From the IMG/VR virus record IMGVR_UViG_3300046171_000179: a stretch of DNA of 64,000 nucleotides; one strand, written 5' to 3'. Numbering within the stretch: the stretch's first letter is position 1; each line of letters begins with the position of its first letter. Below are positions 27,639 to 63,063 of this stretch, one piece after another. A program made the translations under genes and the position numbers. The notes below the pieces were generated by a model that saw only the letters and a list, made by a program, of their open reading frames with translations, was not told where the DNA came from and did not search any database. Source of the DNA: an uncultured virus (IMG/VR IMGVR_UViG_3300046171_000179). Its lineage: Duplodnaviria; Heunggongvirae; Uroviricota; Caudoviricetes; Crassvirales.

Positions 27639-30070
27639 ATGGCAATAACAACAGGACAACTTCCTACACAATTTCCGAGTCAAGCTGTCTCAGATGAAGA
27701 AAAAATGTCTTCTGAATATGGTTTATCGGTTGGAAGGGCTATTGAACAAGAATGGTTCAATAAAGATAATAACCCCGGTATGTATTATCAAACCAATGAA
27801 GAGTTTCACAGGTTAAGATTATATGCTAGAGGTGAGCAGTCTGTTAAAAAATATAAAGATGAATTTGCTATAAACGGTGATTTGTCTTATTTAAATTTAG
27901 ACTGGAAACCTGTACCTATTATTCCTAAATTTGTAGATATCGTTGTAAATGGTATGCAAGATCGACTTTTTGATATAAAAGCTTTTGCGCAAGATCCTAT
28001 ATCAACAGGAAAAAGAACAGATTTTGTAAATAAAGTTCAAAGAGATATTAATGCTCAATCTTTATTAAAACAAATAGAAGCTGAAGTAGGTGTTGATGCT
28101 AGAAATATCAAACAAGATGATATGCCTACAAATACAGAAGAACTTGAATTATACATGCAATTAGCATATAAACAAGGTATAGAAATAGCTGAAGAACAAG
28201 CTATTAATAATGTTTTTCTAACAAATAAATATCCAGAATTAAAAAAACGCGTTGATTATGATTTAGCTGTATTAGGCATAGGAGCTGTAAAAAACACGTT
28301 TAACAATACAGATGGTATAAAACTAGACTATGTAGATCCCGCAAATTTAGTTTGGTCTTATACTGAAGATCCTAATTTTGAAGACTGTTATTATTTTGGA
28401 GAAATTAAAAGAATAAATCTTAACGAACTTAAAAAACAATTTCCAAATTTACCAAATGAAGAAATAGCAGAATTTGTTAAAAAAGGTTCTAATTGGGTTG
28501 ATTATAATAATAACTGGTTTAATAATAATTTTAATAGCGAAATAGATAATAATAATACACTTACTGTATTATATTTTAATTGGAAAACTTGGGAAAACAA
28601 CGTTTATAAAATTAAAGAAACATCTACTGGTGCTGATAAAGCTATATTAAAAAATGATAAATTTAACCCACCACAAGATAAAAGAACAAGATTTGAAAGA
28701 GTAGCACAAGCTAGAGAGGTTGTTTATGAAGGAGCTTATATATTAGGTAGTAATATACTACTTAAGTGGCAAAAAGCAAAAAACATGATAAGGCCTAGTT
28801 CAAATACTAATAAAGTATTAATGAACTATACTGTATCAGCTCCAAGAATGTATAAAGGTAATATAAATTCTTTAGTTTCTAAAATGACGCCTTATGCTGA
28901 TTTAATTCAGTTAACACATTTAAAACTACAACAAACAATACAAAGAATGGTTCCATCAGGTGTTTTTATAGATGCTGATGGTATTGCAGAAGTTGATTTA
29001 GGTAATGGAACTAATTATAATGCTCAAGAAGCATTAAACATGTATTTTTCTACAGGTTCTATTATTGGTAGATCTTTAACTGTAGAAGGTGATCCTAATC
29101 CAGGTAAAGTGCCAATACAAGAATTACCTGGAACTCAAGGTAATCAAATACAAATATTAGTAGCAGCATATAATCAGTATCTTCAAATGATAAGAGATAT
29201 TACTGGTTTAAATGAAGCTAGAGATGGTTCTGATCCTGATCCAAATTCACTAGTTGGAGTACAGAAATTAGCAGCAGCAAACAGTAATACAGCTACAAGA
29301 CATATATTATCATCAAGTATGTATATAACATTGGCCTTAGCTGAGGCTATATGTTTAAGATTTAAAGATGTATTAGAGTTTCATCCTACAAAAGAAGCTT
29401 TTATTGATTCACTTAGGTCAGATTTTCAGTAGGATCTTTAGAAGAAATGAAAAACTTACATTTGCATGATTTTGGTATATTTTTAGAATTAGAACCAGAT
29501 GAAGAAGAAAAATCTTTATTAGAAGCTAATATACAGGCTGCATTATCAAGAGATAGTATTAATTTAGAAGATGCTATTGACATACGTGAGATAAAAAATC
29601 TTAAACTTGCTAATCAAGTTCTTAAGATAAGACGTATTAAAAAACAACAGATAGATCAACAAATGGCCCAAGCGGCTAGCGTTGCTCAAGCTGAAGCACA
29701 AGGAGCTGCTCAAATACAAATAGAAGAAGCAAAAGCTCAAGCAGAACAAGTTAAAACAGAATCTAAAATTCAATATAGACAAGCTGATATTGAGTTTGAA
29801 ATTAAAAAATTAGAAGTAGAAGCCCAAACAAAAAGAGAGCTTATGCAGTTTGAATATGATTTAAATGTTAAATTAAAAGCTCTAGAATTAGAAGCTCAAA
29901 AAGAATTAGTAGAAAAACAAAATGAAACAGCTGTTGAAGTTGCTAATTTAAAAACATCTGCTAAAAGTTTATCAGGTCCACCTCAAACAGGTAAACCAGC
30001 TAAATCATTTGAATCTAAAGGAAATGATGTTTTAGGTGGTATTGATTTAAGTAGATTTTCACCTAAATAA
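27639..30070 (+). CDS. Portal protein, split by apparent frameshift near 29420
   Basis: Follows terL; LDWKPVPIIPKFVDIVVNG; removing two extra C restores SLGRFSVGSLEEMKNL. Confidence 0.85.
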
Positions 30071-33856: not shown

Positions 33857-34573
33857 ATGGTAAATATAAACAATGTATACCAATCTGTTCTTGTTATAAC
33901 AAACAAAGATAATCGTGGTTATATAACGCCTGAAGAATTTAATAGATTAGCTGAGCAAGCTCAAAATGAGATATTTGCAAGTTATTTTGTAAGAGAAGCA
34001 GGTTATGAGTTAAATGCTTTTTTAACAAGTGATTTTTCTGATCCTAATACTTATTTAGCAGAAAAAATAAATGTGTTTTATAAAGATAGCACTCTTACTC
34101 ATGCTAATGGTGAATTTACATATCCTGCTGACTTATATAGAGTAGGTGTGGTTTCTGTAGATAACGTTATAGCAGATAGAGCTTCACATGAAGAGGTTAA
34201 ATACATTAATTTATCACCATTAACAGCACCAGTAAAAACACAGCCCGTGTATTCATTAACAAACACGGGTGTTGTGGTTTATCCTTCAACAGTAACATCT
34301 GGTGTAAAATTAGATTACTTAAAAAAGCCAATAAGGCCTAAATGGGGTTACGTTCTAAATGGAACTGTGCCCTATTACGATCCTACAGTTTTTGACCCAG
34401 CAAATGATAGTTATGATACAGCGGCAAAATCTTACAACTTTGATTTACATCCTTCTGAAGAAAACAACTTAGTTGTTACTATACTAAACTATGCTGGAGT
34501 TGTTATCAAACAAGGAGATGTAACTGGATTTGCACAAGGTAAAGAACAACAAAACGCAGCAACTGAACAATAA
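33857..34573 (+). CDS. Head-tail connector/ring protein
   Basis: NKDNRGYITPEEFN..A.QAQ; synteny. Confidence 0.7.
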   Translation: MVNINNVYQSVLVITNKDNRGYITPEEFNRLAEQAQNEIFASYFVREAGYELNAFLTSDFSDPNTYLAEKINVFYKDSTLTHANGEFTYPADLYRVGVVSVDNVIADRASHEEVKYINLSPLTAPVKTQPVYSLTNTGVVVYPSTVTSGVKLDYLKKPIRPKWGYVLNGTVPYYDPTVFDPANDSYDTAAKSYNFDLHPSEENNLVVTILNYAGVVIKQGDVTGFAQGKEQQNAATEQ

Positions 34574-35500
34574 TGGCAATATCAAGAAAACCTTTAGATG
34601 TAGATAATTATTCCGCTTTAGATGGCGGTAATGGATTAGCAGTCCCTGGATATTACAGGAGAACAAACTTAAACGATATAATAAACAATTTTATTGTAGC
34701 ATATATTGGTGATGGTAAAATTCTTACTCAGGTTCCTAGATATGAGGTTGCTTTCTTTGCACAAAAAGCAGTGCAAGAATTTAGTTATGATGTTTTTCAT
34801 TCTGAAAAAGCCTTAGAAATACAACTAAGTTCATTAAGACAAATGTCTTTGCCATCAGACTACGTTAATTATATTAGTATAAAATGGACAGATGCTAGCG
34901 GCGTGCAAAGAACAATACTACCTAGCACAACAACACAAGCAAATCAAGGTGTTGCTCAAGATGAAAATTATCACTACTTATATGATAATGATGGTAATAT
35001 AATATTTGCTGAAACATCTGAAACAATAGATAGATATAAATCTAATAGTCCGGAGGAAAATGAAGAACTTGCAAGTACGTATTACTATGGATATTTTGAT
35101 GTACCTAATTACTTTGGTTATTTTGGAGGTCGTTATGGTTTAACACCTCAATTTTCTAATATAAATGGTACGTGTGTTATAGATTTAAATGCAGGACAAA
35201 TATATTTTCCATCAACAATACCTCAAGACACATATATAACATTAAGTTATATATCTGATGGTTTAGGGTAATAATGGAGATTTTGACAATGTGTTAGTGC
35301 CTAAATTAGCAGAAGAAGCTGTAATGTCAACAATTCTTTATAGCTTATGTAAAATAAGACCTTCAGCTTCAGGTTTATTACCTTTATATAAAAAAGAAGC
35401 AGCTGCTAAAACAAGAAATGCAAAAATTAGAATAGCTAATATGAAAGTAGATGAAATGACTCAGATATTTCGTAATAAAGCTAAATGGATTAAACACTAA
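34573..35500 (+). CDS. Tail tubular/ring protein, apparent frameshift near 35268
   Basis: LPSDYVNY; removing one G of TTAGGGTAA gives DGLGNNGDFDNVLVPKLAEEA. Confidence 0.75.
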
Positions 35501-35509
35501 TAAATTTCT

Positions 35510-38500
35510 ATGCCAGAAATTAAAAGAACATTCAATGTCGGTAAAATGAACCGAGATCTGGATGATAGAATAGTACCTGCCGGTGAATATCGAGAAGGTT
35601 TTAATATTAATATCGGGCAATCAGAAAGCTCAGATGTTGGTGCAGTTGAAAATTTATTAGGTAATGAATTAGTAGCACAAAGTGGACTTGCTAATGGTAA
35701 ATGTATAGGTCAAGTAGCTGATACTGGTGCAGAAAAAATATATTTTCTTGTTACTACAAATTCAATATATAATGAAACCAACAGTGGTCAGCATGGTTTA
35801 TTTGAATATGATCAAAAAACAAAACAACTTACAGCTTTAATTGTTTCAACACAGTTAAATTTACATCAAAATTATCCTGTAACAGGTATAAATATAGTTG
35901 ATGACCTTTTATTTTGGACTGATAATAGAAATTATCCTAGAAAAATAAATGTAGTAACCGCAAGAAACAATACTTCTTACTATACTGCAGCTGCAGATAT
36001 AGATAATTTAATATCTGTAGCTAAGTTTACACCATACGAATCCCCAACTATTGTTGCGGCAACTAGAGAATCTAGTATATCTTCTACTTTTATGGAAGAT
36101 AAACTTATTAGATTTTCATATAGGTGGCAGTTTGAAGATAGTGAGTATAGTGTATTAGCTCCATTTTCTCCTATACTTTTTTCAAGATTAAATGAAACTG
36201 ATACAATAAGTACTTCACTGTCAAATTTTGGTGAAATAGAAACTTTTGTTAACGCAATAAATCAAGTACAACTACAAATACCTACACCAACCGGATATGG
36301 TATTACAAGTGTTGAATTAATATACAAAGAGTCTGGATCAGGTACTTTATATGTTGTTGATGATCAAGAAATTACAACAGAACCTTTTGTAAACTTTACA
36401 TATTCTTCAACCGATCCATTTAGAACTTTGCCAGGTGATCAGCTTACTAGGGTTTATGATGCTGTACCTATTAAAGCTAAAGCACAAGAAGTTGCTGGTG
36501 GTAGATTAGTTTATGGAAATTTTTTACAAAATTTTGACATACCTAATATAGCTTTTAGTGTTGAAAGAACAGGTGAAACATCTGCTAGAAATAATATTTT
36601 AACAAATCAATCAGTTAAATCAAGAAGAACATATCAGGTTGGTATTGTATTAGCTGATAAATTTGGTAGACAATCACCTGTTATATTATCTAGCTCTGGT
36701 ACTGATACTGTTTTCATAGATCCAGGTTATGGTAATGCATCATCAACAACTGCTTTTAATGCATTGAGAATAGTATTTGCAGACACAACACAGATACCAA
36801 CATGGGCTTATTCATATAGAGTTGTTGTAAAACAACGTGAACAAGAATATTATAATTGGATATCTACTATTGATGCTGCTAACACGGTTAATCGTTTTGG
36901 CGATAGTATAAATAAAATACCTAGAGATCAAACAGCTGCAATACCTCCTAGTACTTCAGCAACAATATCTCCATGTAATGTATCTGTTTATCCTAAGTAT
37001 TTAGCTGGTGGAAATGTTTATACATCTCCATATGCGGCTTTAACTTCAGTACAATCTATTTCAAATCCTTCAGGTGATGCAACTGTTACAACTATTGATA
37101 ATAGCGGTAACGCAGTATCTACTGGTTTATGTGTTTTTGAAACAGAACCTGTTAGCTCTGAGTTAGATATATTTTATGAAACATCTACAGGAGGTTTAGT
37201 TGAGGATATTCCTGCTACTGCTATTGATATAGAATTTTTTAACTGTATATTGTTAACTTTTACAGCGGGTAATCATGTAGAAATAAATAGAATTAAAGCA
37301 GGTTTTAATCAACCGTTTTTTGATGTAGGTGTTAGAGCTTATGTAGTGCAAGAAAACTTTACTCAAGAAAGAAGAAATAATACTCTTATACATTCTAGTG
37401 GACTTTTAAACTCTAGAACTGGTATTAACTACATAAATCAATTTAATGAATCTGAGGGTGGTCTAACTATCTCTCTTGATCCACTAAATGGTTCTGTACA
37501 GAAAATGTTTGTTGATGATACGCAGATATTAATATTTCAAGAAGATAAAGTATCTAGATCACCTATTGATAAAAACTTTATATATGCAGCTGAAGGTGGC
37601 GCAGTGCCAGTTACAAGTAATACACAATTTTTGGGAACAGTAGCTGCTTATGCTGGTGAGTTTGGTATATCAAACGATCCTCAATCTTTTGCAAGTTTTG
37701 GTTTTTCAAGATATTTTACAGATAAAAATAGAGGTACTGTATTAAGATTATCTCAAAATGGTATTACTGAAATATCACAAGTTGGTATGGGTGATTTTTT
37801 TAGAGATGCTTTAAAACAATCTACGTCTATTATAGGATCTTATGATGAGTATAGTCGTATGTATGAATTAACTATTATAGGCCAAGGCTTTGATAGTAAT
37901 GAAGATACAAATGCAGCTACAGCATCAGATGGATATTTAACAGTTACTTTTGATGATAGATCAGGTGGGTGGACAAGTTTTAGAGGTTATAAACAAGAAG
38001 GTGGTTTATCATTAAATAATACATATTATACTTTTAACGGTGGTCAATTATGGCAACATCACAGTACTAATGTAACTAGAAATAATTTTTATAACTCTGG
38101 AACACAAGAGTCTTATGTTATACCTATATTTAACGACGCTCCATCGCTTGTAAAACAATATAACAGTTTAAGTTATGAAGGCGATACTGGCTGGGAGTTA
38201 GAGTACATAGAAACAGATATAAGCGCTTCAGGAACACTACCAGTTTTAGCAACATCTTTTACAACAACCCTACAATTAAATGGTGCTGCACCTAATTCTG
38301 TATTTAATGGAGCTAATACTGCTCAAGCTAAGCAAGGTGATAATGTTCAATGGGCTATTTTTGTATCACCATTAAACTCTCAATTTGCTTTTAACAACGT
38401 AAACGATATAACATTAACTCCAGCTTCTGGAAGTAGTTTAAGTGTAACAAATCCCGTTGGAACTCCTCCGTTTGAATCTACAGATGGAAGATTAGTATTT

Positions 38501-39499
38501 TTAGTTCAACACACTGTTGGAAACGCTAATAGCATACAAACTTTAAACATAGGAGGTACAGGCGCTTCTTTAGCATTTACTGTAGCTTTGTTGACCGTAA
38601 ACATTATAGATACTGTTTCAAACTCTTCAATAACTCCAGCTTCACAAGTGTTTAATAATGCTGGAAGTAATAGTGTTATATTTAGTACAGCTGTTGAAAA
38701 CAACTATTATATAGATACAGCTAACGTAACTGTTAGTGTGCTTGGGATGCCAGCTTCTACTAATCCTGGAACTTTAACAAATGTAAGGAGTGGAGTTGGA
38801 GGTTGTAGTGCATGTTTGGATAATTTAACTTACACTTTACCAATAACAGTTCCTTCAACAGCAACAGCTGGAACAATAACAGTAAATGGATCAGCAACAT
38901 TAAAATATACCTTACAATTAAATCAAGGTAATGTAGCGGCACCTACGGGTGGAACTGTTAATTATAGCACACCTGTTCAATCGAGCGGAGCAACAACAAC
39001 TATAGGTACACCTTTTTATAATTCTCCATTTGATTTAGCAAGTACTAGAACTGTTGTTATAACATACACATGTGCAACAACTGAAATACTTGTTGATAAT
39101 AGTTATGTTTTATCTGGTTTTCCAACTGGCACTACACCAACTCCTGTTTTAAGTAACGAAGATGGTCAACTAGCGATAACTCAAGTTATACCTATACTTA
39201 CACAAGATACAGTTGTAACTCCAGTTGTAGATTCAACAGTAGGAGCAGTTGCAGCAACATTAGGTAATACTTCTACAATAAATCTACCTCAACCTGGTAG
39301 TGCACAAACTATAGCTAGTACTTGGAATGTTAATGGATCTGCTTCACCAGGTTCTCCAACCGCCTCTTGGTTATCTTTAGATTCTGCTGCTTCTGGCGTA
39401 GCTATATCGTTATCTCCAGGAGTTTCTTTTACAGTTTCGGCGCTACTGAAAATAAACGGAGCTCATCAAGATCCCGAACTATTACTTAGCAACAACTAA
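35510..39499 (+). CDS. Tail stabilisation/muzzle protein with S/T-rich C-terminal extension
   Basis: GKMNRDLDDR, LFWTD.RN.PRKIN, YFTDKNRG.VLRLS, GWTSF; 3' end uncertain. Confidence 0.8.
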   Translation: MPEIKRTFNVGKMNRDLDDRIVPAGEYREGFNINIGQSESSDVGAVENLLGNELVAQSGLANGKCIGQVADTGAEKIYFLVTTNSIYNETNSGQHGLFEYDQKTKQLTALIVSTQLNLHQNYPVTGINIVDDLLFWTDNRNYPRKINVVTARNNTSYYTAAADIDNLISVAKFTPYESPTIVAATRESSISSTFMEDKLIRFSYRWQFEDSEYSVLAPFSPILFSRLNETDTISTSLSNFGEIETFVNAINQVQLQIPTPTGYGITSVELIYKESGSGTLYVVDDQEITTEPFVNFTYSSTDPFRTLPGDQLTRVYDAVPIKAKAQEVAGGRLVYGNFLQNFDIPNIAFSVERTGETSARNNILTNQSVKSRRTYQVGIVLADKFGRQSPVILSSSGTDTVFIDPGYGNASSTTAFNALRIVFADTTQIPTWAYSYRVVVKQREQEYYNWISTIDAANTVNRFGDSINKIPRDQTAAIPPSTSATISPCNVSVYPKYLAGGNVYTSPYAALTSVQSISNPSGDATVTTIDNSGNAVSTGLCVFETEPVSSELDIFYETSTGGLVEDIPATAIDIEFFNCILLTFTAGNHVEINRIKAGFNQPFFDVGVRAYVVQENFTQERRNNTLIHSSGLLNSRTGINYINQFNESEGGLTISLDPLNGSVQKMFVDDTQILIFQEDKVSRSPIDKNFIYAAEGGAVPVTSNTQFLGTVAAYAGEFGISNDPQSFASFGFSRYFTDKNRGTVLRLSQNGITEISQVGMGDFFRDALKQSTSIIGSYDEYSRMYELTIIGQGFDSNEDTNAATASDGYLTVTFDDRSGGWTSFRGYKQEGGLSLNNTYYTFNGGQLWQHHSTNVTRNNFYNSGTQESYVIPIFNDAPSLVKQYNSLSYEGDTGWELEYIETDISASGTLPVLATSFTTTLQLNGAAPNSVFNGANTAQAKQGDNVQWAIFVSPLNSQFAFNNVNDITLTPASGSSLSVTNPVGTPPFESTDGRLVFLVQHTVGNANSIQTLNIGGTGASLAFTVALLTVNIIDTVSNSSITPASQVFNNAGSNSVIFSTAVENNYYIDTANVTVSVLGMPASTNPGTLTNVRSGVGGCSACLDNLTYTLPITVPSTATAGTITVNGSATLKYTLQLNQGNVAAPTGGTVNYSTPVQSSGATTTIGTPFYNSPFDLASTRTVVITYTCATTEILVDNSYVLSGFPTGTTPTPVLSNEDGQLAITQVIPILTQDTVVTPVVDSTVGAVAATLGNTSTINLPQPGSAQTIASTWNVNGSASPGSPTASWLSLDSAASGVAISLSPGVSFTVSALLKINGAHQDPELLLSNN

Positions 39500-39559
39500 C
39501 AACAAGAGTAATTTCGCTAGCGTTCACTAATCAATAAATAACTATTAATCAAGCAGGAT

Positions 39560-39795
39560 AATATTGCAGATATAGTATCATTTCCTTTTGAAGAAAAAGA
39601 AGGCAAGTATTTTGCACCTATAGTTTCTCACAGAACTAAATATAAAGTTGAAAATGGATATTTAGACAGACATGGCAAAGAATTAATATCAGGATATTAA
39701 AGGAGCATTTTGCTTAATTAAAAACAATACCACTGTAAATTCAACAAGAAAGAAAACTAATTGCTTTAAACTGCGAAGCGTAAATTCATCGAAAT
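39560..39795 (+). other. Error-ridden coding segment (DIVSFPFEEKEGKYFAPIVS...IKGAF)
   Basis: Recognisable protein-like fragments in shifting frames. Confidence 0.45.
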
Positions 39796-39803
39796 TATAT
39801 TAT

Positions 39804-40245
39804 ATGCAATTACAAGTAAGAAAATTACAAGAATCCGATTGGGATTTAATACCAAAATGGTGGGAAGCTTACGGAGCCGAAGGCTTCCCTCGTGATATGT
39901 TACCTGGATCTTTTAGAGTTGGTGACGAAACAAGAAGAAAAAAGAAAAGGCTTAGGTGGCTTTATGGTTTGCAAAGGAGATGATCCTATTGCAGCTATGT
40001 GGCTGTGGATGACAAACAGTAAGACTGCGATTCCAGCTGTAGTAGTTAGTGATAAATCTTATCAAGACACGGACAGAAGTGATGCATTGCAACTCTTAGT
40101 AAATTTTACAACTGATTTTGCCGAGGACATGGGTTATAAATACGCATTTGCTTGGGCAAAAAAAGGAGTGTTATTAGATAAATATAAACAAGCGGAGTAT
40201 TATTGTGATGAAACTCCGTCTTATGAATTAATAATGAAATACTAA
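39804..40245 (+). CDS. Putative GNAT-like virion protein, apparent frameshift near 39930
   Basis: MQLQVRKLQESDWDLIPKWW... joins ...GGFMV...TNSKTA...MGYKYAF after removing one A. Confidence 0.6.
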
Positions 40246-41459
40246 TGGGAAGTATAGTAAAAGGAGTTGGATCATTATTTGGTGGTCGAGCTAGAAGAAG
40301 AGAAGAAGCAAGCGCACGAACAGAATTTGAAGGCGCTAAACAAGGATTAAAAGATTTTGAATTTGGAGATTTTTATGGAGATCTTCAAGCAAAAGAATTA
40401 GGTGCGGCGCAGCAAGGACAGTTGTCTCAAGCGCAAGGTGGCACTTTAGGCCCAGCGGGTCAAGCAGCTCTTGTTCAAAGAGGACCAGCTGTTCAGGCTC
40501 AGTTAGCTAATTTAGCAGATGCTCAAGGATACCAAGGTCAAGGTTACACAGCTGGATCTACTAGTGTTGGTCAGCTAGCAAGAGGCGCTGATACTGGTCT
40601 TACAAACACAATGAACAACTTACAAGTGTCTACGGCTGGAGCAGAACTAGCAGCACAAGAAGCAGATCAATCATTAGCAGCTTCTCAAGATTTAGCGGCT
40701 CAAGCAGGTACTGGGGCTGGTGGAGCTACTGCGTTAGCCGCTGCCGCTGCAAAGTCTAAAGCAGGTATTTCTGCGGATATAGATAGACAAGTTAAATCTA
40801 ACGAACAAATGAGAGCTGCCGCTGAAAGTCAATTACAACAAAGTCAATTAGCTCAAGGTAATTTAGCATCACAATTTGATTTAGGTCAACAACAATTTAA
40901 CGTTGGCGCTGCAAACGATGCTTCAAGATTTGGTGCTCAAGCTCAAAATGATGCAGCAAGATTTAGCGCACAAGCGCAAAATCAATTTGCTTTATCTGAA
41001 TTTCAAGCTGGAAATCAAATGAATCAATTTAATGCAGCTGCACAAAATCAAGTTGCTAGAGATAATTTTAATGCCGCTAATGCAACTAATCAGTTTAATG
41101 TTGGTGCACAAAACAGATTTTTAGAAAGTCAATTTGGTGCTGATAACGCTTTTTCTATGGCTAATATGGAGGCTGCAAACAAAATGTCACAGTTTAATGC
41201 AGCTGAAGCTAATCAACAAGAAAGAGCTAATCAATCACAGTTAAATTCATTTATGATAAATCAAGCTGCAGGTCAGGCTGATAGAGCTGAAAGCCAATAT
41301 GCTCAACAAATGGATCAATTTAACATTGGATCACAAAGATATGGTCAAGCTCAACAAGCTAGAGCGCAAGCTACTGGTGATTTGTTAGGTGGTATTGGAG
41401 GAGTTTTAAGTGCTGCTGCTGGGCCAGCTGGAGTACTTAAAGGAATTATGGGAGGATAA
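40245..41459 (+). CDS. Internal/ejection protein
   Basis: A/Q/G-rich, QFNA..AN repeats, Gly-rich hydrophobic termini. Confidence 0.7.
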   Translation: MGSIVKGVGSLFGGRARRREEASARTEFEGAKQGLKDFEFGDFYGDLQAKELGAAQQGQLSQAQGGTLGPAGQAALVQRGPAVQAQLANLADAQGYQGQGYTAGSTSVGQLARGADTGLTNTMNNLQVSTAGAELAAQEADQSLAASQDLAAQAGTGAGGATALAAAAAKSKAGISADIDRQVKSNEQMRAAAESQLQQSQLAQGNLASQFDLGQQQFNVGAANDASRFGAQAQNDAARFSAQAQNQFALSEFQAGNQMNQFNAAAQNQVARDNFNAANATNQFNVGAQNRFLESQFGADNAFSMANMEAANKMSQFNAAEANQQERANQSQLNSFMINQAAGQADRAESQYAQQMDQFNIGSQRYGQAQQARAQATGDLLGGIGGVLSAAAGPAGVLKGIMGG

Positions 41460-41475
41460 TTAATAAATTAATATT

Positions 41476-42903
41476 ATGGCAATAAATTCACAATTAGATT
41501 TAAGAGCGGTTCAAAATGCTTATGGTAATCACATGCAAAATGCTTTATCAAAAGCTGGAGATGATATTGATTTAGACATTGAAAAAACTAGAAAACTTCA
41601 AGAAGTAGCTGAAACAAAAGCAAGAAGAGAATTACAGACAGGTATATTAAAATCTCAACAATTAAAGGGATTAGTAGTTCCTTCAGAAACAGAATTTGAA
41701 AGTCTTAATTTATATGCTCAAGATATGAGCAGACAGCTTGTAGATCAATACAGTACTTTAGTATCTTCATTAGAAAAAAACGAAATAGATTCAAATCAGT
41801 TTGCTCAACAAGCTTCTATTATACAAATGCAAGTTCCTCAAATTAAAAATTTTGTAAGTGGACTTGAAGAAAGAGCATCTGCATGGAGTGCTGGATTGAA
41901 AGACAATACACTAAGTTTAGCTAATCCACCAGAGAATGAATCTTTTTTTGCAGCTATAGCTCAAAATAGAGGTGAGTTTGGTATGGATGAAAATGGCGTT
42001 TTAGTTTATCAAGGTAAAACAGAAGCTGGAGAAGATTTTAGTTTTCCAGCAAATAAACTTCAAGACATACCTGTTCCTATAAAAAAAGTAGAAAGTTTTG
42101 TTGAAATGAGTGATCCACTTGTTGATGCTTTGTTAAAACCAAAAGCTTATTTTAATGAAATAACAGGAAAAGAAGAGTTGAGAACAGTTGACAAACAGTC
42201 TAAAGATTATGAGCGTGCTGTTAGGCAAGCTTTTGATGCATTCTTAGGAGCTGATGATGATACTGCCAACTCTAAGCTTAGATCATTAGCTGCAGATCAC
42301 GTAGGGATGACTAGAGATCAAATTCAAGATGCTATCAATGATACAAATTATGAAGGTCCTACTGGTGAAACATTTGCAAATAGATTAGAGTATGAAATGG
42401 AAAAGCATTTTGTACAAACTGTAGATGAAAATTATGAGGCTACTAAATATAAAAACTGGAAGCAAGCTCAAGAAGATTTACAGATGCAAAAAATGTATCA
42501 ACAAAGTCAATTAGCAAGAGAAGCAGCGTGGCAGGGTAAGACACAAGTAGAAAGAGCACAATATCAAACAGCTAAATATATGAAAGATTTATCTTCTCCA
42601 ACAGAAGATTTAAACTCTTGGGTATCTGGAGCTGGAGCTAGTGTTTTAAGAACTTTTGAAAAAGACTTAAAAAAGGATGACGTATTAATACCTGCTGGTT
42701 CTATAGCTATAAAAGATAGAGGTGGTAAAAGTATATTAATTACACCTGAAATACTTGAAGATCCTAATAAGTTAGCTAGCTTTTTGTCATCAAGGTTATA
42801 TAATCTGCCACCTTATATGCAATCATTTAATTATAAATCAACAACACCTAAAGATATAAGTCCAATAAAAAAAATTACTAATTTTTTAACTGGTAAAAAA
42901 TAA
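41476..42903 (+). CDS. Internal/ejection protein
   Basis: Helical 475-aa ORF between ejection-like genes. Confidence 0.6.
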   Translation: MAINSQLDLRAVQNAYGNHMQNALSKAGDDIDLDIEKTRKLQEVAETKARRELQTGILKSQQLKGLVVPSETEFESLNLYAQDMSRQLVDQYSTLVSSLEKNEIDSNQFAQQASIIQMQVPQIKNFVSGLEERASAWSAGLKDNTLSLANPPENESFFAAIAQNRGEFGMDENGVLVYQGKTEAGEDFSFPANKLQDIPVPIKKVESFVEMSDPLVDALLKPKAYFNEITGKEELRTVDKQSKDYERAVRQAFDAFLGADDDTANSKLRSLAADHVGMTRDQIQDAINDTNYEGPTGETFANRLEYEMEKHFVQTVDENYEATKYKNWKQAQEDLQMQKMYQQSQLAREAAWQGKTQVERAQYQTAKYMKDLSSPTEDLNSWVSGAGASVLRTFEKDLKKDDVLIPAGSIAIKDRGGKSILITPEILEDPNKLASFLSSRLYNLPPYMQSFNYKSTTPKDISPIKKITNFLTGKK

Positions 42904-42909
42904 TCCTTT

Positions 42910-45900
42910 ATGGAAGAAGAATTCGAATTTATTACTCTTGATAATTATCAATCATTTACTCCCGAAGAGGAAGAACAAGAATTAGATGAGTTTGGTAATC
43001 CAATTATAATAAATCAATTATCAGATGAGCAAATAGCTAAAAATGAAAAATTAGCCTTTCAAAATGCTTTAAAATCTGTTAGTCCTCAAGGTTTTTGGGC
43101 TTTAGATAAAATATCTAATTTTGCAAATGTAATACCATCTACTGTAAAAGGAATTTTAAATGCTGGAGATGCTTTAGCTCAAGGTGCTTATGAAATAATT
43201 ACTGGAGATAAAATAGATTCAATAGAAAAACAAGAAGCTTTTGATTTAGCTTTAGGTAATGTAAAATCAGTTACATCTCCACAAAACGTAGCGCTTGAAA
43301 ATTTAGCAGATGAATCTATTGAGACACTTTCATTTGGTATAGAAGATAGAAAAGGAGAAGATTTTATTAGTTTAGCTGAAAAAGGAGATTATTTAGAATC
43401 AGCCGATGCATTAATGTCTGATTTGGCACAAGGTATACCTTCATTATATTTATCTATGGTAGGTGGCGGATTAGGTGCAGCTGCATTAGGTACATCTTCT
43501 TTTGGAAGTAAATTTGATGAAGTTAAAAGAGAAGAAGTTAAAGACGAAGCTTTGTTTCAAGAAGATGCTTTAGGCATGAGTTCATCTTATTTAAATAAAA
43601 TAACTACTTCTGGTATAACAGGTATAGGGGATTTTGTAGGTGAGTTAGTTACAGGAAGATTAGGAAAAATAGCTGGAAGATTAGCTCAAACTTTTGGACC
43701 TAAAGTTTCAAGTAAAATACTAGGAAAGGTAATAGGCACAACGGGCGCTAGTATAACAGAAGCGGCTTCTGAAGCTGTTCCTGAGTTTGTAGAGTCTTAC
43801 TTAGGTGATTATGCTATAGGAGGTGATGAAAAAGCTTTAGAAGGTTTAAGCCGTAGAATGTGGAGGAGTGGTATAATTGGAGGTATTTTAGGAGCAGGAG
43901 GAGTTAGCTTAAGTAATTTAAATTCAGAAGCTAAACAAGCTATAAATGTAGCTGTTCAGCCTAAGGTTATTACTAAACAACAGTTAGAAGTTTTTAGAAA
44001 AATAAAAGAATTAGAAGCTACGTTAGAAACAACTGAAGATCCAATAGCAAGAGAAGCTATAGAATTAGAAATAAATGAACTTACACAATCTAGACAAAAT
44101 TCAATAAATGAAGTAAGCAATAGAGTTCAAGAGTTATCTACAGATCAATTACAAGAGTTGAATAGCATTAATGGAGATATTGATTTATTTAATAGTGTTG
44201 TTAATGATACTAATTCTAGCGAAATAGCTAAAGAAGCGGCTCAAAATCAAATAAATAATTTAGAAAAAAAAGCTATAGATATTTTTCAACAACCAGAATT
44301 AAAAAATATTGAGTTGTCAGAAAAAGCACAAGAACTTTATAATGAAAGAGGTGTTGAAGCTAGAGACGAAATAATAGAAACTCAGGAAGGTTTGATAAGA
44401 CAAGTGGCAATAAATAAATTAAACTCTTTGCCACAAAACAAAAGAGCTGAAGACAATTATGAGAATTTAGTTAGTCAACTTAAATATGGTCCAGGAAGCG
44501 TAGAAGCTCTTATTAACTCATATAACCCTGAAACAGGAGTACCTATAACTGCATATATAGCAGAACAATTGCCTAAAAGAGCAGATAGAATAGCTAAACA
44601 AGTTATATCTCAAGACAATGTAACAGATTTTAATTCTACAGAAGTTTCTAATATTTTAACTGAAGATAATTTTGATTTTGAAGTACAAATTGGGTCAAAA
44701 CTTTTAGCAGATAAATTGAACATGCCTGTTGGTTTAATAAACAAAGCTTTAAAAGCTGTTGAGCCTGGTTTAGTATCTATAGAATCTATGTTAGATTCTA
44801 ACAACAAAGAGCTTAGTCCTAAAAAGAAAGCCTCTGAAATAGACAAAGAGTTTAAAAGAATATTTAACAACAGGCTAGTAAATGATATTAAAAATGAATT
44901 TGGAAAAAACACAAAAACAAAAGAAGATTTTTCAAATTATTTAAATAAAAATTATATAGGATTGGCTCAAGCTTTTTTAACTCAAAAATCAGGATTGAAA
45001 GGTAGGGGTATATCGAAGCAATGGGCGATGAATCCTCCTACAAAACAAGAATTTATAGATTATTTTGAAGGAAAGGATGTTAAAAAAAATACTAGAAGCG
45101 ATAGAAAAGCTGCACTAGCGGAAGCTGTGTCAAATCAAATAGCTATTGATGCTAGAAATGAATTTTTAGATGCAAATCCAGACCTAAGAAAAGCTTTTAA
45201 TGAAAGAAATAAAATACAACTAAAAGTAAATAGAAGCAATAAAGCTCAAGAAGAAGCGTCTAAAGTAATAAACGAAACTTTAATAGCGGATAAAAATGAA
45301 GTTGAGTCAATGAAAACTTTAGGAGGTGGATTTAAAAGTTTTTTAAATGATTTAAAACAATATAAAACAGTTAAAGATGCTTCACAAAAAGAACTAATTG
45401 AAAATCCTCAATGGGTTAAAGCTGGTGTTTCTAGAGGTGATAACATTTACTTTGAAGAAAACGTTGATGTTATGAAAAACGATTTGTCTTCTGTAGTAAG
45501 TTCAATTCCAAAAGAATTAGTTGATTTGTTTGGTTTAGATAGTTTTGCTTTTTTAGGTCAAGCGAATAGAGCTTTAGATCCAGCTTCTACCACTTTAGCT
45601 AGTAGACTTGAAGGAGGTAAAGGATCTCCTAAGTGGCTAATAAAAAAAGATGGAAAAGCTGAAAGAATATTACCTGGTACTCCAGGGGTAGGTTTTGAAT
45701 ATTTTAAAAATGCAAAAGAATCAGCTAAAGATATTGAAGAATTATATAAAAACAAAGATATAGATTTAAAACTTTATAGACAATTTAAAAATATAAATTT
45801 AAATAATGTAGAGTTTCAAAATCTAACTAATCCAGGTAAAAATAACTTTTTAAATGTATTACAAAGAATAGCTTCAGATAAAAAATATAATACTGTAAAA

Positions 45901-48900
45901 CAAAGAATACAAGCTTTAAATGATGCTGGTTGGAATAAAAAATCAATTGATGCATTAAATAAAGCAAATAACGATTTGATGAAGTTTCAAATAGATCTTC
46001 TTAAAAATCAATATGAAAAAGGAAAAATAAGTAAAGATGCTTTGTTTACAATGCTACAGTGGCAAACTAATATTAAAAATGGTTTTAGAGGTTTAACTTC
46101 TGTAAACAGTTTTTATTTACAAAATGGTCCAGTTAAATTAACAAAAGGTGAGCACTCTAAGCCTAATGCTTTAACAATGGTTCAAATATATAACTATGTT
46201 ACTGGCACTAAAAAGTCAAGAACTTTAGATGATATAATTTCTCAACATACTCAAGACTTTGGAACTAAAGAAAATTTTAATTTAATAGACAATGTTTTTG
46301 GAAGTACTACAGCAATGGAAGGAAATCAAAGATTGTTACAAGGCTTAAGCCCAACTGAATCTGCTAGTTTTTATGATATATCAGGACAAAGTATTTTAAG
46401 TAAAAATTTAGAAAAATCATTTAAAGAAAACGGAGTACCAATTGATGTGGGTTTTGCTCAATTGCAACAAGAATATAAAATTAATGGACCTATAAGTGTT
46501 CAAGTTGAAAATAAATTAAATGAAGTTAATATTAACAAGTTTAATGAAGTTTCTAAACAAGCAAAAGAAGCTAAAGCAAATTTATCTAATACAGAACTAG
46601 CTGAGGGAGTTTTGGGTGTTTTAAAAAATTCTTGGGGAGGTAATATAAATATAATTACAGATAAAAAAGCAGCAATTGATTTTTTAATAAAAAATAACAA
46701 CATGACATCTGTTCAAGCTAGATCTTATGTTGGTAAAGCCTCTGGATTTAGAGCTGGTAGCACCATATTTGTTGGTTCTAGCTCAGATATGCTTAACACT
46801 GCTATACATGAATCTGGACATATTTGGAATCCAATAATAAAAGAACAAGCTCCTGAACTTTGGAATGATATGGTTCAAAAAGTTAAAGATTCTAATCTGT
46901 GGGAAGCTACTGTTGCTGCTATAAGAAACGAACCAGAAGCATATCCTCCTGATCAATACACAGATGATTCTTTTGATTTAGAAGATGAAGTTTTATCTAT
47001 ATTAATAGGAAATAGAGGCGAAACTTTAGTTGAAGAAAAAAATTTAGATAAATCAGCTTTTAGAAAATTTATTGATAGTTTTTGGAAAAATTTAAGAAAC
47101 ATATTAGGATTTGATCCTACCACTAAAAACTTTCAAGATCTTACAATGAACGAGGTTCTTGATCTAGCTGTTTCTGAAATAATGACAGGAAATCCGCTTT
47201 CTAATTTTAGTAAATTAAAAGATGTTAACATACCTAAAAAAACATTAAGAACTTTACAAGAAAGTAAAAATCCGTCTATGCGAGCGGTTAGAGATCCTGA
47301 ATATAAAGCTTTAAAACAACTACAAAAAGATTATAAAGAAAATGGTAGAGATTTAGCTTTAGCTATAGAAACTTCTTATAGTAATGTAAAAGATATTTTA
47401 AGTTTTGATGATTGGTCTGATTTAGTGAGTTCAACGGTTAAAGAAATTAAAATTGGAAAAACAGCAGAAAGTACTGTAGTTGCCGTTGCAAAAAAAGACG
47501 TTGTTAATAATGAAAAAAATAGAAAAAATTTAATTAATACAATAAAAAAATTAAATGCTTTTATTGAAGGAGATCAATATTTACCGACTGAAATATTAAA
47601 CAAAAAAATAAATGATATACAAGATGCAGCTTTAAAAAATCAAAAAGAAATTGCTGAAAAACAAGCAGAAGGTTTAAATAAAAATTTTAGAAAAATAATA
47701 AATTCTGTTACAGGTAAACTAGGTAAACCATCAAGATGGTTTATACCACCAAATGCAGAAGATATTAAAGGATTGCTTTATACTTTTTTACCAGGAGGTA
47801 AAGAAGGTGTTGAGGCTAAAAAGTTTTTTAATTCTACAATATTAGATCCATATTCACGAGGAGTAGCTGATTCTGAAGCTGAAATACTTCAAAAAACAAG
47901 ACAGTTCACTAAATTAATGGAAAATTTTAAATCAGATTTAAAAGAAGTTATTGATGGAACTCCATATAGCGCTGGTCAAGCTATAAAAGTTTATAATTGG
48001 ATTAAAAATGGAGTTGATGTTGATATTGAAAAACAAAGTTATAAAGACGCTTTGGTAGAAGCCGTAGAAACAAATCCTGAGTTAAAGGCTCTTGCTGATC
48101 AAATTGAACAAAATTTTCCTATAGAATATAAAGCTACATGGAGAAATGATACTACAATTAATAAATCTATATATGACGCTATAAATTCTGGAACTAGAAC
48201 TAAACATTTAGCTACTTTTGCAGAAAATGTAGATAATATATTTAATAAAGACAACTTGCAAGAAATTGAAAACTTGTATGGTAAAAAGTTTAGACAAGCT
48301 TTACAAAATTCATTACAAAGAATGAAGACTGGTAGAAACCGCGTAAGCACGGATGCACAGTCAAATGCTTTTTTAAATTGGATAAATAGAGCTGTAGCAA
48401 CTACGATGTTTGTTAATACTAGATCGGCCGTATTACAGTTGTTATCATCGTTAAATTTTATAGGTAAACCTAATAATAATATATTTCAAGCAACGGCCGC
48501 TATGTTTAGCGATAATTGGAAAAAAGATTTTAATACTCTTTGGAACAGTGATTATTTAAAAAACAGAAGAGATGGTGCAAAATTTGATGTATTAGCTGAT
48601 GAAATGTCAGAAGGTGATGTTAAAGGTTTAAACAAGATACTTAAGTTTGGATTTTTACCAACAAGAATGGCTGATAGTTTTGCTATAGCTTTAGGTGGGG
48701 CCGCATATTATAGAAACACTATGGACGCGTTGATTTCTAAAGGTATGTCTCAAGCTGATGCTAAAAAAGAAGCTATGAGAATGTGGCAAACAACCGCAGA
48801 AGAATCTCAACAATCTTCTGATCCTTCTAAAATATCTGAAATACAATCAAGTTCTATTGGGAAGGTTATATATGCTTTTGCAAATACTCCATTTCAATAT

Positions 48901-49935
48901 GCTCGTATAAGTAAAAGAAAATTACAAGATGTAGTATCAGGAAGATCAGCTGCTGAAGGAGGTGGTAATCAAATAAGAAAAGATCTACAAAGTGTACTTT
49001 ATTATACAGTAGGTCAAGCCATGGTGTTTAACGCATTACAAACGGCATTATTTGCCGCTGCTTTTGAAGATGATGAAGATGAAAAAGAAAAACTTGTTGA
49101 TGAAAAAACTATTTTATCTGTTGAAAGGGCATTAACTTCTTATGCAAAAAGCTTAGGTAATCCAGGTGCTGTAGTGGGTGCTATATACAACGTTATAGCT
49201 GAAGCTAATGAACAACAAGAAAAATTTGGGTTTATAGATAACCCATATAAAGTTGCTTTAGAAGCTACATCTATATCACCACCTTTAAATACTAAACTAA
49301 GAGACATAGTTGCAATAGGTAATATATATAAATACAATGAAAAAGAAATTAAAAATGATCCTTTTAAACTTTCTCCTGACAACAAGGCTTTGGAAATTAT
49401 TGGTAATGCTGCTTCATTTGGCGGTGTTCCTTTAGATAGAGTTATAAGGAAAGCTCAAAATTTGTCTGCTATAGCTAATGAAGAGGCAGACGCGTGGCAA
49501 AAATTGTTTTTAACATTAGGTTGGAGTAAATGGGAATTAGGTTTACAGAATAATAATAGAAAATCTGGTTTAGATTTAGATTTAGATTTAGACCTAGACC
49601 TAGATTTAGATTTAGACTTAGGGCCTTTAAACAAAATAAAAAAAACTAGTAGTTTACCAAAAAATGTTTTAGGAAGAGCCAATAATGATGGAACTATTGA
49701 AGTAGATCCTTCACTTAAAGGTAAAGAAAAAAAGAAAGTAATAGCGCATGAGAAAAAACACATGCAAGATATGAAGTCTGGTAAATTAAATTATGATGAT
49801 AATTTTGTTTATTATAATGGAAATAAGCATGAGCGTAAAAATGGTAAAATAGACTACAACGGTAAGAAATATATAGAGGGCCATCCTAAACTACCTTGGG
49901 AAGCGGCTGCAAATAAGGTAGAAAAATCTGCATAA
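42910..49935 (+). CDS. Giant polyvalent ejection protein (sigma-region-2-like segment, two HExxH zincin motifs)
   Basis: 2341 aa; HESGH at 46807-46821, HEKKH at 49747-49761. Confidence 0.75.
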   Translation: MEEEFEFITLDNYQSFTPEEEEQELDEFGNPIIINQLSDEQIAKNEKLAFQNALKSVSPQGFWALDKISNFANVIPSTVKGILNAGDALAQGAYEIITGDKIDSIEKQEAFDLALGNVKSVTSPQNVALENLADESIETLSFGIEDRKGEDFISLAEKGDYLESADALMSDLAQGIPSLYLSMVGGGLGAAALGTSSFGSKFDEVKREEVKDEALFQEDALGMSSSYLNKITTSGITGIGDFVGELVTGRLGKIAGRLAQTFGPKVSSKILGKVIGTTGASITEAASEAVPEFVESYLGDYAIGGDEKALEGLSRRMWRSGIIGGILGAGGVSLSNLNSEAKQAINVAVQPKVITKQQLEVFRKIKELEATLETTEDPIAREAIELEINELTQSRQNSINEVSNRVQELSTDQLQELNSINGDIDLFNSVVNDTNSSEIAKEAAQNQINNLEKKAIDIFQQPELKNIELSEKAQELYNERGVEARDEIIETQEGLIRQVAINKLNSLPQNKRAEDNYENLVSQLKYGPGSVEALINSYNPETGVPITAYIAEQLPKRADRIAKQVISQDNVTDFNSTEVSNILTEDNFDFEVQIGSKLLADKLNMPVGLINKALKAVEPGLVSIESMLDSNNKELSPKKKASEIDKEFKRIFNNRLVNDIKNEFGKNTKTKEDFSNYLNKNYIGLAQAFLTQKSGLKGRGISKQWAMNPPTKQEFIDYFEGKDVKKNTRSDRKAALAEAVSNQIAIDARNEFLDANPDLRKAFNERNKIQLKVNRSNKAQEEASKVINETLIADKNEVESMKTLGGGFKSFLNDLKQYKTVKDASQKELIENPQWVKAGVSRGDNIYFEENVDVMKNDLSSVVSSIPKELVDLFGLDSFAFLGQANRALDPASTTLASRLEGGKGSPKWLIKKDGKAERILPGTPGVGFEYFKNAKESAKDIEELYKNKDIDLKLYRQFKNINLNNVEFQNLTNPGKNNFLNVLQRIASDKKYNTVKQRIQALNDAGWNKKSIDALNKANNDLMKFQIDLLKNQYEKGKISKDALFTMLQWQTNIKNGFRGLTSVNSFYLQNGPVKLTKGEHSKPNALTMVQIYNYVTGTKKSRTLDDIISQHTQDFGTKENFNLIDNVFGSTTAMEGNQRLLQGLSPTESASFYDISGQSILSKNLEKSFKENGVPIDVGFAQLQQEYKINGPISVQVENKLNEVNINKFNEVSKQAKEAKANLSNTELAEGVLGVLKNSWGGNINIITDKKAAIDFLIKNNNMTSVQARSYVGKASGFRAGSTIFVGSSSDMLNTAIHESGHIWNPIIKEQAPELWNDMVQKVKDSNLWEATVAAIRNEPEAYPPDQYTDDSFDLEDEVLSILIGNRGETLVEEKNLDKSAFRKFIDSFWKNLRNILGFDPTTKNFQDLTMNEVLDLAVSEIMTGNPLSNFSKLKDVNIPKKTLRTLQESKNPSMRAVRDPEYKALKQLQKDYKENGRDLALAIETSYSNVKDILSFDDWSDLVSSTVKEIKIGKTAESTVVAVAKKDVVNNEKNRKNLINTIKKLNAFIEGDQYLPTEILNKKINDIQDAALKNQKEIAEKQAEGLNKNFRKIINSVTGKLGKPSRWFIPPNAEDIKGLLYTFLPGGKEGVEAKKFFNSTILDPYSRGVADSEAEILQKTRQFTKLMENFKSDLKEVIDGTPYSAGQAIKVYNWIKNGVDVDIEKQSYKDALVEAVETNPELKALADQIEQNFPIEYKATWRNDTTINKSIYDAINSGTRTKHLATFAENVDNIFNKDNLQEIENLYGKKFRQALQNSLQRMKTGRNRVSTDAQSNAFLNWINRAVATTMFVNTRSAVLQLLSSLNFIGKPNNNIFQATAAMFSDNWKKDFNTLWNSDYLKNRRDGAKFDVLADEMSEGDVKGLNKILKFGFLPTRMADSFAIALGGAAYYRNTMDALISKGMSQADAKKEAMRMWQTTAEESQQSSDPSKISEIQSSSIGKVIYAFANTPFQYARISKRKLQDVVSGRSAAEGGGNQIRKDLQSVLYYTVGQAMVFNALQTALFAAAFEDDEDEKEKLVDEKTILSVERALTSYAKSLGNPGAVVGAIYNVIAEANEQQEKFGFIDNPYKVALEATSISPPLNTKLRDIVAIGNIYKYNEKEIKNDPFKLSPDNKALEIIGNAASFGGVPLDRVIRKAQNLSAIANEEADAWQKLFLTLGWSKWELGLQNNNRKSGLDLDLDLDLDLDLDLDLGPLNKIKKTSSLPKNVLGRANNDGTIEVDPSLKGKEKKKVIAHEKKHMQDMKSGKLNYDDNFVYYNGNKHERKNGKIDYNGKKYIEGHPKLPWEAAANKVEKSA
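49570..49620 (+). repeat. Hexamer repeat YTAGAY encoding L(DL)8
   Basis: TTAGATTTAGAT...CTAGAC... Confidence 0.9.
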
Positions 49936-61905: not shown

Positions 61906-62268
61906 TCATATTAAATCATATATAACTCCATTCTTCTTAAATAATCTACGTTTAGCGTAGTTATCTATCTTGCCAAATACAGTATGACCATCAACGTAGT
62001 CATTATTATATTCATCATACTCATTATATATCTTAGCTTTTTTAGATACACCTTTACCTGTTAATTGATAACTGTTAATTGGTATATATTTACCTGATGA
62101 TACAGGTGATACAATGCTAAAATTATAATTTGCCTGTTTTTCTCTAGGCGCATTATCTTTGTAAGGATTAGGAGGTGAATCCCCTTGCCTTACATATTGT
62201 AATTCGTCAATAGCTGTGAAACAGCTTTTATATTTAGTCTTAAACTTATACATAGTATTATAGTGCAA
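61906..62268 (-). CDS. Hypothetical protein
   Basis: 120-aa ORF. Confidence 0.6.
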   Translation of the reverse strand: MHYNTMYKFKTKYKSCFTAIDELQYVRQGDSPPNPYKDNAPREKQANYNFSIVSPVSSGKYIPINSYQLTGKGVSKKAKIYNEYDEYNNDYVDGHTVFGKIDNYAKRRLFKKNGVIYDLI

Positions 62269-62286
62269 TTATTTGTTAAAGGGACC

Positions 62287-63063
62287 TTAATCCTGATATA
62301 TTTTTAAATTTTTTGCAGAGTACTCATGTACTTTTGACTGCGAGCGTATACCATTAGTAGAAACATAGTAAGCTAACTCATTTAAAGCATCTTCATTGGA
62401 TCTTAATCTTTTTAAGAGCCTTTGTTTTTGCTTTTTTACACTTTCCATGTTGCCACCATAGTGTTTAGCAATATCAGCTATTTTTTTAGGTTTAGAATAA
62501 ATATCATCTAAACCATAAAACATTTGCATCATGCCTGAATACTTAGGTATATATTTTTTTAACCATCCTATAAGGTAATCGCCTAGTTTATCATGCTCAT
62601 AATTATATACGTCATCTTCAACCATAGAGATTACATCGCTATCAAACCATTGAGGAAATAATACAGATATAAAACCAAATCCATTTGTATGTCTCTTTTT
62701 ATCTTTATTATTCCAAATGCCTTTTATAGGTCTACCAGATCCATCGACATTTTCTTTTATTCTATCTCCAACAATACCTTTAATACTGATACTCAAGAAC
62801 TTACTAACTGTTTTATTCTTGTCTAATTTTGATTCTAACTTATTTATATAGTTCCAATCAATATTACTCCAAGCTGTTAGTAATGCTAAATATGCCTCTT
62901 GATTTAGATCATTAATATTCATGACACCAATAGCTGAATAATCTTTTGAATAACTATTTGCTATTTTAGTTGCCATCTTAAAATAATCAGAAGGTATATT
63001 AGATTTTATATTATTAACTGTTTGCCGGTTGATAGCATAGATTTTCTTATTAAAATTTTTCAT
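62287..63063 (-). CDS. Sigma70-family sigma factor
   Basis: DLNQEAYLALL region 2; FYGL...IADIA...ESVKKQKQRLLKRLR region 4. Confidence 0.75.
   Translation of the reverse strand: MKNFNKKIYAINRQTVNNIKSNIPSDYFKMATKIANSYSKDYSAIGVMNINDLNQEAYLALLTAWSNIDWNYINKLESKLDKNKTVSKFLSISIKGIVGDRIKENVDGSGRPIKGIWNNKDKKRHTNGFGFISVLFPQWFDSDVISMVEDDVYNYEHDKLGDYLIGWLKKYIPKYSGMMQMFYGLDDIYSKPKKIADIAKHYGGNMESVKKQKQRLLKRLRSNEDALNELAYYVSTNGIRSQSKVHEYSAKNLKIYQD

Follow-up and report, generated by a model that had tools for sequence, protein, structure and literature searches.

A sigma70 domain-2-like module in the giant virion-block protein of uncultured marine podophages: a candidate starter of early transcription

What could a sigma70-like segment be doing inside a giant protein that is probably packaged in a phage head and ejected upon infection? 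To our knowledge, phage transcription is started in one of three ways (covered in part in PMC7824862), by the host holoenzyme, by a whole RNA polymerase that is injected, or by an injected enzyme that modifies the polymerase of the host. The original prediction, made from the DNA alone, pointed to a peptide resembling sigma70 region 2 within such a giant and suggested that it may bind the host core polymerase and thereby start early transcription, drive DNA entry or block the host sigma. In the present study, we followed up this prediction in the 64,000-nt stretch of DNA (hereafter, the window), which represents most of the genome of one marine podophage, and in its cultured and uncultured relatives.

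The window phage and its giant gene

The terminase, portal, capsid, ring and muzzle genes of the window are followed by three small or medium genes and by the 2341-aa giant, after which comes a converging replication block (Table 1). Both terminase and capsid match phages of Flavobacterium, Cellulophaga, Tenacibaculum and Maribacter, the terminase being 44.6% identical to that of Elemovirus, and the closest cultured relatives are Elemovirus, Callevirus (Pervagoviridae) and Baltivirus (Pachyviridae). Because terminase and capsid match these three genera, the window phage is best placed as a relative of Crassvirales that stands outside the order itself. The Crassvirales frame of the original prediction, with a virion RNA polymerase injected from this genomic position, has therefore been given up, homology to phi14:2 gp65-gp67 being undetectable as well.

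None of the 54 longer window genes is preceded by a Shine-Dalgarno core, which agrees with a Bacteroidota host according to the accessible part of PMC6847099. A prophage search of 185,579 species genomes returned only two short contigs, from which the host cannot be named, and no cultured member of the domain-bearing clade was found.

Several other features of the genome were observed in passing. The portal gene (27639-30070) is split into two ORFs, of 597 and of 207 aa, each of which matches phrog_6547; in a close relative, this place is taken by a single gene of 821 aa, and an assembly error may have caused the split. Compared with record L002, which is 99% identical, the ring gene (232 vs 308 aa) and the end of the muzzle gene (1329 vs 1349 aa) are cut short, and indels cluster at window positions 34573-35500 and about 39400-39900; sequence errors in the window are the likely cause of the shortening. 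Genes for GroEL and a GroES-like protein are phage-encoded at 3158-4735 and 24610-25212, as they are in the cultured relatives.

The giants of Elemo, phi38:1 and phi13:2 occupy the equivalent gene position and are annotated as structural proteins, and the profile of the N-terminal region matches phi13:2 gp127 (E 2e-16), Elemo gp21 (8e-16) and phi38:1 gp101 (2e-5). Located after the muzzle gene and homologous to virion proteins of cultured relatives, the window giant is probably a virion protein itself. An HExxH motif was found in 133 of 140 giants (upstream of the sigma2-like module in 117, downstream in 16), and a segment related to the zincin-like region occurs in the giants of Manatee Spring phage and Elemo. 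Since no Pfam model matches the HExxH region, its zincin assignment rests on the motif, and it represents a possible processing or wall protease.

Near the C-terminus (49567-49625), the dipeptide Leu-Asp is repeated about eight times, where homologues have a basic stretch instead, and the small C-terminal domain that follows (49693-49929) contains a second HExxH (aa 2280) and a weak match to phrog_16532. Homologous giants (P0001, P0002, P0004, P0005; P0057; P0168, P0176) contain additional cargo, namely an insert that is HAD-like by its motif and occurs at two different places, a VWA domain of the CobT type, and domains resembling kinases (PF06414/PF13671). A Pfam search of 18 full giants gave no meaningful domain.

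No D.DGD or DFDID motif had been visible to the original prediction, and our scan bears this out: neither D[FY]DxD nor DxDGD, nor any homologue of phi14:2 gp65-69, was detected in the window and four near-complete relatives, and the RNA polymerase-type motif matches among the giants are scattered and unconserved (4 of 90 rows). An RNA polymerase hidden within the giant was considered and, as far as sequence can tell, rejected, there being no catalytic motif and no homology to phi14:2 gp66, criteria that a strongly diverged polymerase in the variable middle part (aa 780-1230) might escape.

Table 1. Positions of the features discussed, in window coordinates
Feature	Position	Strand	Basis
Muzzle gene and small/medium genes ahead of the giant (virion block context)	35510..42903	+	crAss_MUZ_C, E 9e-4; PHROGs
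Giant 2341-aa ORF, final large gene of the virion block; putative internal/ejection protein	42910..49935	+	position, homology
N-terminal region (aa 120-420), common to virion giants of cultured relatives	43267..44169	+	profile matches
Sigma70 domain-2-like module (aa ~462-567)	44293..44610	+	predicted fold, profiles
Acidic flexible linker (aa 570-594)	44617..44691	+	pLDDT below 50; alignment
Second helical domain (aa ~599-767), behind the sigma2 segment	44704..45210	+	pLDDT about 90
HExxH region, zincin-like (H1300, with an acidic residue near 1358)	46597..47229	+	motif
Conserved C-terminal region of the giant family (aa ~1580-2200)	47647..49509	+	covered by about 140/177 giants
Putative class B promoter with TTGCACTATA box, immediately behind the gene of the stand-alone sigma	62254..62286	-	same box and place in 5/5 relatives of this sigma type
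Stand-alone sigma70-type factor (258 aa), candidate middle/late sigma	62287..63063	-	phrog_351, E 1.6e-6

A sigma2-derived module

The peptide quoted in the original prediction was recovered in frame at 44340-44600, inside the giant ORF. A phmmer search of 1.84 billion representative sequences gave 116 matches at E<=1e-3, mostly proteins of 1000-3100 aa and over aa ~465-585 of the window protein, and a relative is encoded on 180 viral stretches. An Atlas search provided no more than a lead. Among 177 giants, a set gathered via the sigma2 domain itself, the segment is one of the two blocks covered in most members.

At the level of single sequences, searches of Pfam, PHROGs and PDB yielded no sigma match for the segment. 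Pfam sigma models matched neither the window protein, which stays below the curated cut-off of Sigma70_r2, nor any of 42 full-length relatives, and matched one of 46 domain members, weakly. A first profile (A2), diluted by flanking sequence, found nothing. An HMM built from 16 sigma sequences placed its best domain at the segment in 9 of 166 giants (5.1 expected) and is uninformative; the corresponding count for genomes was 7 of 20, every score being below 4 bits. With the family profile, the best match among PDB sequences was the N-terminal domain of SigE (E 0.13 and 0.069). Among 27 diverse members, five were matched by NCBIfam sigma models, with E values down to 2.5e-4; the domain of the window protein itself matched the sigma-28 model (E 0.045). 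Furthermore, remote profile-profile homology to sigma70 region 2 was found by hhalign, with P 0.0013 against the 16 sigma sequences and P 1e-4 (probability 57) for a more diverse alignment, and the best three of 64 scanning windows along the giant overlap the sigma2 segment (18.1 vs a mean of 9.6, sd 2.0).

The AlphaFold model of the module, built from a 46-row alignment (mean pLDDT 87.6), is predicted to have the domain-2 fold of the sigma70 family. In a VIA-align comparison with 48,161 chains, each of ranks 1-22 went to a sigma factor or to a chain from a sigma-holoenzyme entry, with Z reaching 8.9 and the highest unrelated chain at 6.3. A longer model gave sigma at ranks 1-25 (SigB with Z 9.1 and an rmsd of 2.7 for 87 residues; highest unrelated chain, Z 6.2). 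A Z of about 9 is lower than the value of about 13 below which the tool advises caution with helical bundles. T4 gp55 (7d7d chain F, identity checked) was within the structural top three, at Z 7.8-8.1. Sigma entries made up 43 of 46 Foldseek rows for PDB (best E 0.5), and the top BFVD match was a sigma (prob 1.0, E 0.06). Another BFVD entry, A0A218ML07, is an uncharacterised viral protein of 1475 aa with a TM of 0.71 to the model and is probably a further member of the family.

No single score is decisive; because the methods agree on one family and one register, the assignment of aa ~462-567 to sigma70 domain 2, which draws on predicted structure and on profiles, is very probably correct. The original prediction had made its case dependent on profile or structural similarity to Sigma70_r2, and such similarity has been found: sigma factors head the structural rankings, the profiles agree weakly, and the register that had been drawn by eye recurs in the independent profiles.

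On a by-eye alignment to E. coli RpoD, Y538 and Y549 take the places of F419 and Y430 and are aromatic in 100% and 96% of 58 representatives. F419, Y430 and W433/W434 are melting residues of sigma70 region 2.3; the W433/W434 positions are not conserved in the module family. The column of E407 holds E in 71% of the 58 representatives and Q in the window, R557 is invariant among the 58 and variable in more distant members, and the core-binding helix is lengthened in many members by an insert of three residues.

For the second helical domain, the structural search, in which it was run as part of the longer model, gave no sigma3 or sigma4 rows, and an Atlas search gave no match; it is a candidate replacement for sigma4. 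Given that the sigma70 fold is predicted while the Pfam cut-off is missed and region 4 is undetected, we speak of a sigma2-derived module and not of a member of the sigma70 family.

Promoter-like motifs and the stand-alone sigma gene

On reading the DNA of four relatives, we spotted a repeated intergenic element, TAC-N22-GATAATAWA. Clustered TAC-N22-GATAATATA sites in domain-bearing relatives constitute our class A, which is present in 20 of 36 records with up to 11 copies and in 14 of the 16 clade records with a completeness of 90% or more, a single match being seen in three of the 14. None of five cultured phages without the module (four nearly whole, phi14:2 represented by about 89 of 100 kb) contains the motif, and a reversed control gave 0-1. 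The window itself has no class A site; its early region lies beyond position 64000. The 143 distinct sites comprise two upstream types and share a conserved TG, which falls at -1/+1 if GATAAT is taken as -12..-7. With this putative start site, the geometry is of the sigma70 type (A-11, T-7, T-1, G+1).

Of the 162 class A sites counted in 31 genomes, 160 are found ahead of the stand-alone sigma gene and in its orientation, and the same upstream stretch contains 19 host-type boxes against 24 expected, with none at all in 19 genomes. As class A lies upstream of the stand-alone sigma gene and host-type boxes are not enriched there, the stand-alone sigma could not easily start its own expression.

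The box of the Flavobacterium primary sigma, TAnnTTTG at -12..-5, is given in the accessible text of PMC9723704. It is enriched before genes in the domain-less relatives Elemo, phi38:1, phi13:2 and Manatee Spring phage (observed vs expected: 14 vs 1.6, 8 vs 1.4, 9 vs 3.1 and 10 vs 0.75), whereas in the domain-bearing clade it stays at chance level. It is also visible ahead of two middle genes of phi14:2, a phage whose middle genes are transcribed by the host enzyme according to the accessible part of bioRxiv 2020.03.07.982082. Separately, Manatee Spring phage (L144 3476-8906, MW202828) has an operator-like 16-bp palindrome before at least seven small early genes.

The alignment of the stand-alone sigma family shows the motifs of both region 2 and region 4, and two Pfam Sigma70_r2 matches look by eye like members of this family. 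The family was found in 10 of 11 partial clade regions and in none of the five cultured phages. De novo word enrichment for class B was dominated by the A-rich leaders, and the class was defined by position instead. The class B box right behind the stand-alone sigma gene is of the YGTAAT type in 21 of the 31 genomes. Ten further genomes form two groups of five whose stand-alone sigmas are 23-28% identical between groups; one group has TTTTATGTAATATATA as its class B box and the other, which takes in the window's type, TTG[CT]ACTATA, while the TACGTTACAA class A promoter is common to nine of the ten. Since class B switches with the type of stand-alone sigma and the TACGTTACAA class A promoter stays constant, class B follows the stand-alone sigma, and class A does not.

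A search by the TACGTTACAA motif alone retrieved 57 loci. Among the 17 larger records picked in this way, the module was present in 11, among them all five records with a completeness of 90% or more; in all 11 the helical domain has the short form of the window, sigma2 being detectable in ten. The records without a module match are G035, G039 and four smaller ones. Starting from the stand-alone sigma instead, we obtained 80 loci and examined 31 records of at least 60 kb, of which 24 have class A sites and 16 a module match. For follow-up, from which G078 was left out, 21 giants were fetched (14 of the 15 misses and seven partial matches): the helical domain that follows the sigma2 segment was present in all 21, and a sigma2-like segment could be recognized by eye in 20, in only seven of which 21 the earlier profile had scored more than 9 bits. 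The family is therefore broader and more divergent than first seen. The giant of G066 (L342:5372-13714) has the helical domain and no evident sigma2, in a genome without a class A match; it is a possible case of natural loss of sigma2 and was excluded from the later alignment.

Module, stand-alone sigma and class A thus occur together, a pattern that is partly circular in that many rows had trained the profile. The stand-alone sigma is present in 40 of 41 genomes having class A sites, and because it and the module nearly always co-occur, co-occurrence cannot separate the two. In partial Mantel tests on 29 genomes (G021 was left out for its truncated control region), the stand-alone sigma is the best correlate of class A variation (partial r 0.55, against 0.26). 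With the five window-type genomes removed (24 left), the helical domain leads weakly, at 0.25 (p 0.018) vs 0.11 (p 0.16). On the question of the protein that reads the upstream elements, the Mantel results are mixed, and there is tight linkage between the promoters and the stand-alone gene.

A possible starter sigma and its place among known systems

With the stand-alone sigma gene placed downstream of class A and no enrichment of host-type promoters, class A has to be read by something that is there at entry, and the sigma2 module is the sole sigma-like candidate in the virion block. Building on what is established here, namely the fold, the lack of an RNA polymerase motif, the two classes of promoter-like motifs, their positions and their co-occurrence, we lean, by a little, towards a scenario in which the injected sigma2 module recruits the host core polymerase to early promoters, which in turn express the stand-alone sigma for later genes. 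The giant would be packaged in the head and ejected into the Bacteroidota host, where the sigma2 domain would bind the beta-prime clamp helices of the host core enzyme and open the GATAAT -10 box of class A early promoters. The helical domain behind the linker would replace sigma4 and read the upstream TACA/TACG elements, which is the weakest step; more speculatively, the HExxH protease may free the module. Early transcription would reach the stand-alone sigma gene, and the stand-alone sigma would then read the class B promoters of replication and virion genes.

The early-transcription role suggested by the original prediction has accordingly gained genomic support, of a correlative kind, from the distribution of class A, the lost host-type boxes and the position before the stand-alone sigma. 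Relatives own an early promoter type, and hence these phages may inject a starter sigma factor and not a whole RNA polymerase. Caution about the mechanism is warranted because an invariant -10 box goes together with a sigma2 module that diverges fast, its members sharing only about one quarter of their residues.

This same observation lends weight to another reading, in which sigma2 binds the host core and reads no sequence, acting as a decoy that displaces the host sigma or as a tether that couples transcription to DNA entry, and the host sigma reads class A, possibly redirected by the helical domain as an activator. Only core-fold positions of the fast-diverging sigma2 are kept, the -10 box is invariant among phages whose modules are 8-26% identical, for which a conserved host factor would be the simpler explanation, and sigma4 was not found; moreover, A-11 and T-7 also occur in the host box at -12..-5 (accessible text of PMC9723704). 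Nevertheless, class A is unlike the Flavobacterium motifs given in that same text, host-dependent relatives use TAnnTTTG, and host promoters have been lost where the domain was gained, and we consider a decoy or tether rather unlikely.

Less probable still, in our judgment, is that the stand-alone sigma reads both classes, started by leaky transcription or by its own packaging, which would leave the sigma2 of the giant as a relic or structural domain. The stand-alone sigma is the better conserved of the two (mean pairwise distance 0.48, vs 0.76 for the virion sigma2), shows the strongest overall correlation with class A variation and is missing from just one of the genomes with class A sites. 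That correlation, however, depends on one split and on tight linkage; one class A promoter occurs with stand-alone sigmas of very different sequence while class B switches, and the virion domain is kept in nearly all of the fetched giants as one of two conserved protein blocks. Finally, a convergent small helical bundle with no kinship to sigma factors would fit the lack of any E-value under 1e-4 in sequence and Foldseek comparisons with sigma factors, the Z below 13 and the near-chance result of the sigma HMM, but is very improbable in view of structural rankings headed by sigma in 22 of 22 and 25 of 25 rows and of independent sequence profiles that give the same family and register.

The preferred reading, that of an injected starter sigma, can be set beside several known systems. 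With domain 2 of the sigma70 family (regions 1.2-2.4; SigB, RpoS, SigE/SigK, RpoD), the module shares the predicted four-helix fold, the register, aromatics at the F419 and Y430 positions and a hydrophobic core-binding helix; unlike the family, it sits inside a protein of 2000-3500 aa, is accompanied by no detected sigma3 or sigma4, scores below the Pfam cut-off, has lost the W dyad, has in many members the 3-residue insert and is followed by the helical domain. T4 gp55 is a sigma2-only factor that acts with the host core and hence a precedent for sigma2 working without sigma4; it is small and free, is produced in the course of infection to serve late genes, and depends on gp33/gp45. The proposed module would resemble gp55 as a sigma2 on host core without sigma4, and would differ in lying within a virion-block giant, in being delivered in the manner of a virion RNA polymerase and in targeting, as a candidate, early promoters. 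The giants of Elemovirus, Callevirus and Baltivirus share the gene position and the homologous N-terminal region; however, they lack the sigma2 module, and their phages have TAnnTTTG and neither a stand-alone sigma nor class A.

Polyvalent proteins, as presented in the accessible part of PMC5512222, are very large phage proteins of many domains, among them a zincin HExxH and cargo that is shuffled between proteins, and have been proposed to jump-start transcription. The giants studied here are like them in size, in the frequent HExxH and, in some, in HAD-like, VWA and zeta-like inserts; no Pfam domain or family model of polyvalent proteins matched the giants. The word 'sigma' is absent from the accessible main texts of PMC5512222 and of PMC8776804 (on related phage families), whose supplements could differ, and the accessible part of PMC7824862 treats phage sigma factors as free proteins. 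In the literature searched, mostly without subscription papers, we found no description of such an injected sigma module.

The virion RNA polymerase of Crassvirales (phi14:2 gp66; accessible part of bioRxiv 2020.03.07.982082) offers a parallel in layout: a giant gene after muzzle and cargo genes, a presumed start of early transcription at entry and a zincin nearby. The window giant, in contrast, has neither DFDxD nor homology to gp65-67, and phi14:2 differs from the present clade in that no upstream motif is shared by its early transcripts and that host-type promoters serve its middle genes.

For the full claim, that a large uncultured clade of marine Bacteroidota podophages injects a two-domain sigma, made of sigma2 and a new helical DNA-reading domain, and owns private early promoters and a two-sigma cascade that bypasses the primary sigma of the host, we regard the case as evenly balanced. 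Injecting the specificity subunit only would be cheap, would work whichever sigma the host uses and may suit starved marine cells. The predicted promoter and a 320-residue module are testable in vitro without phage culture, and the pair could become an orthogonal expression system for Bacteroidota. If true, the scenario would add a third route beside the host holoenzyme and the virion RNA polymerase.
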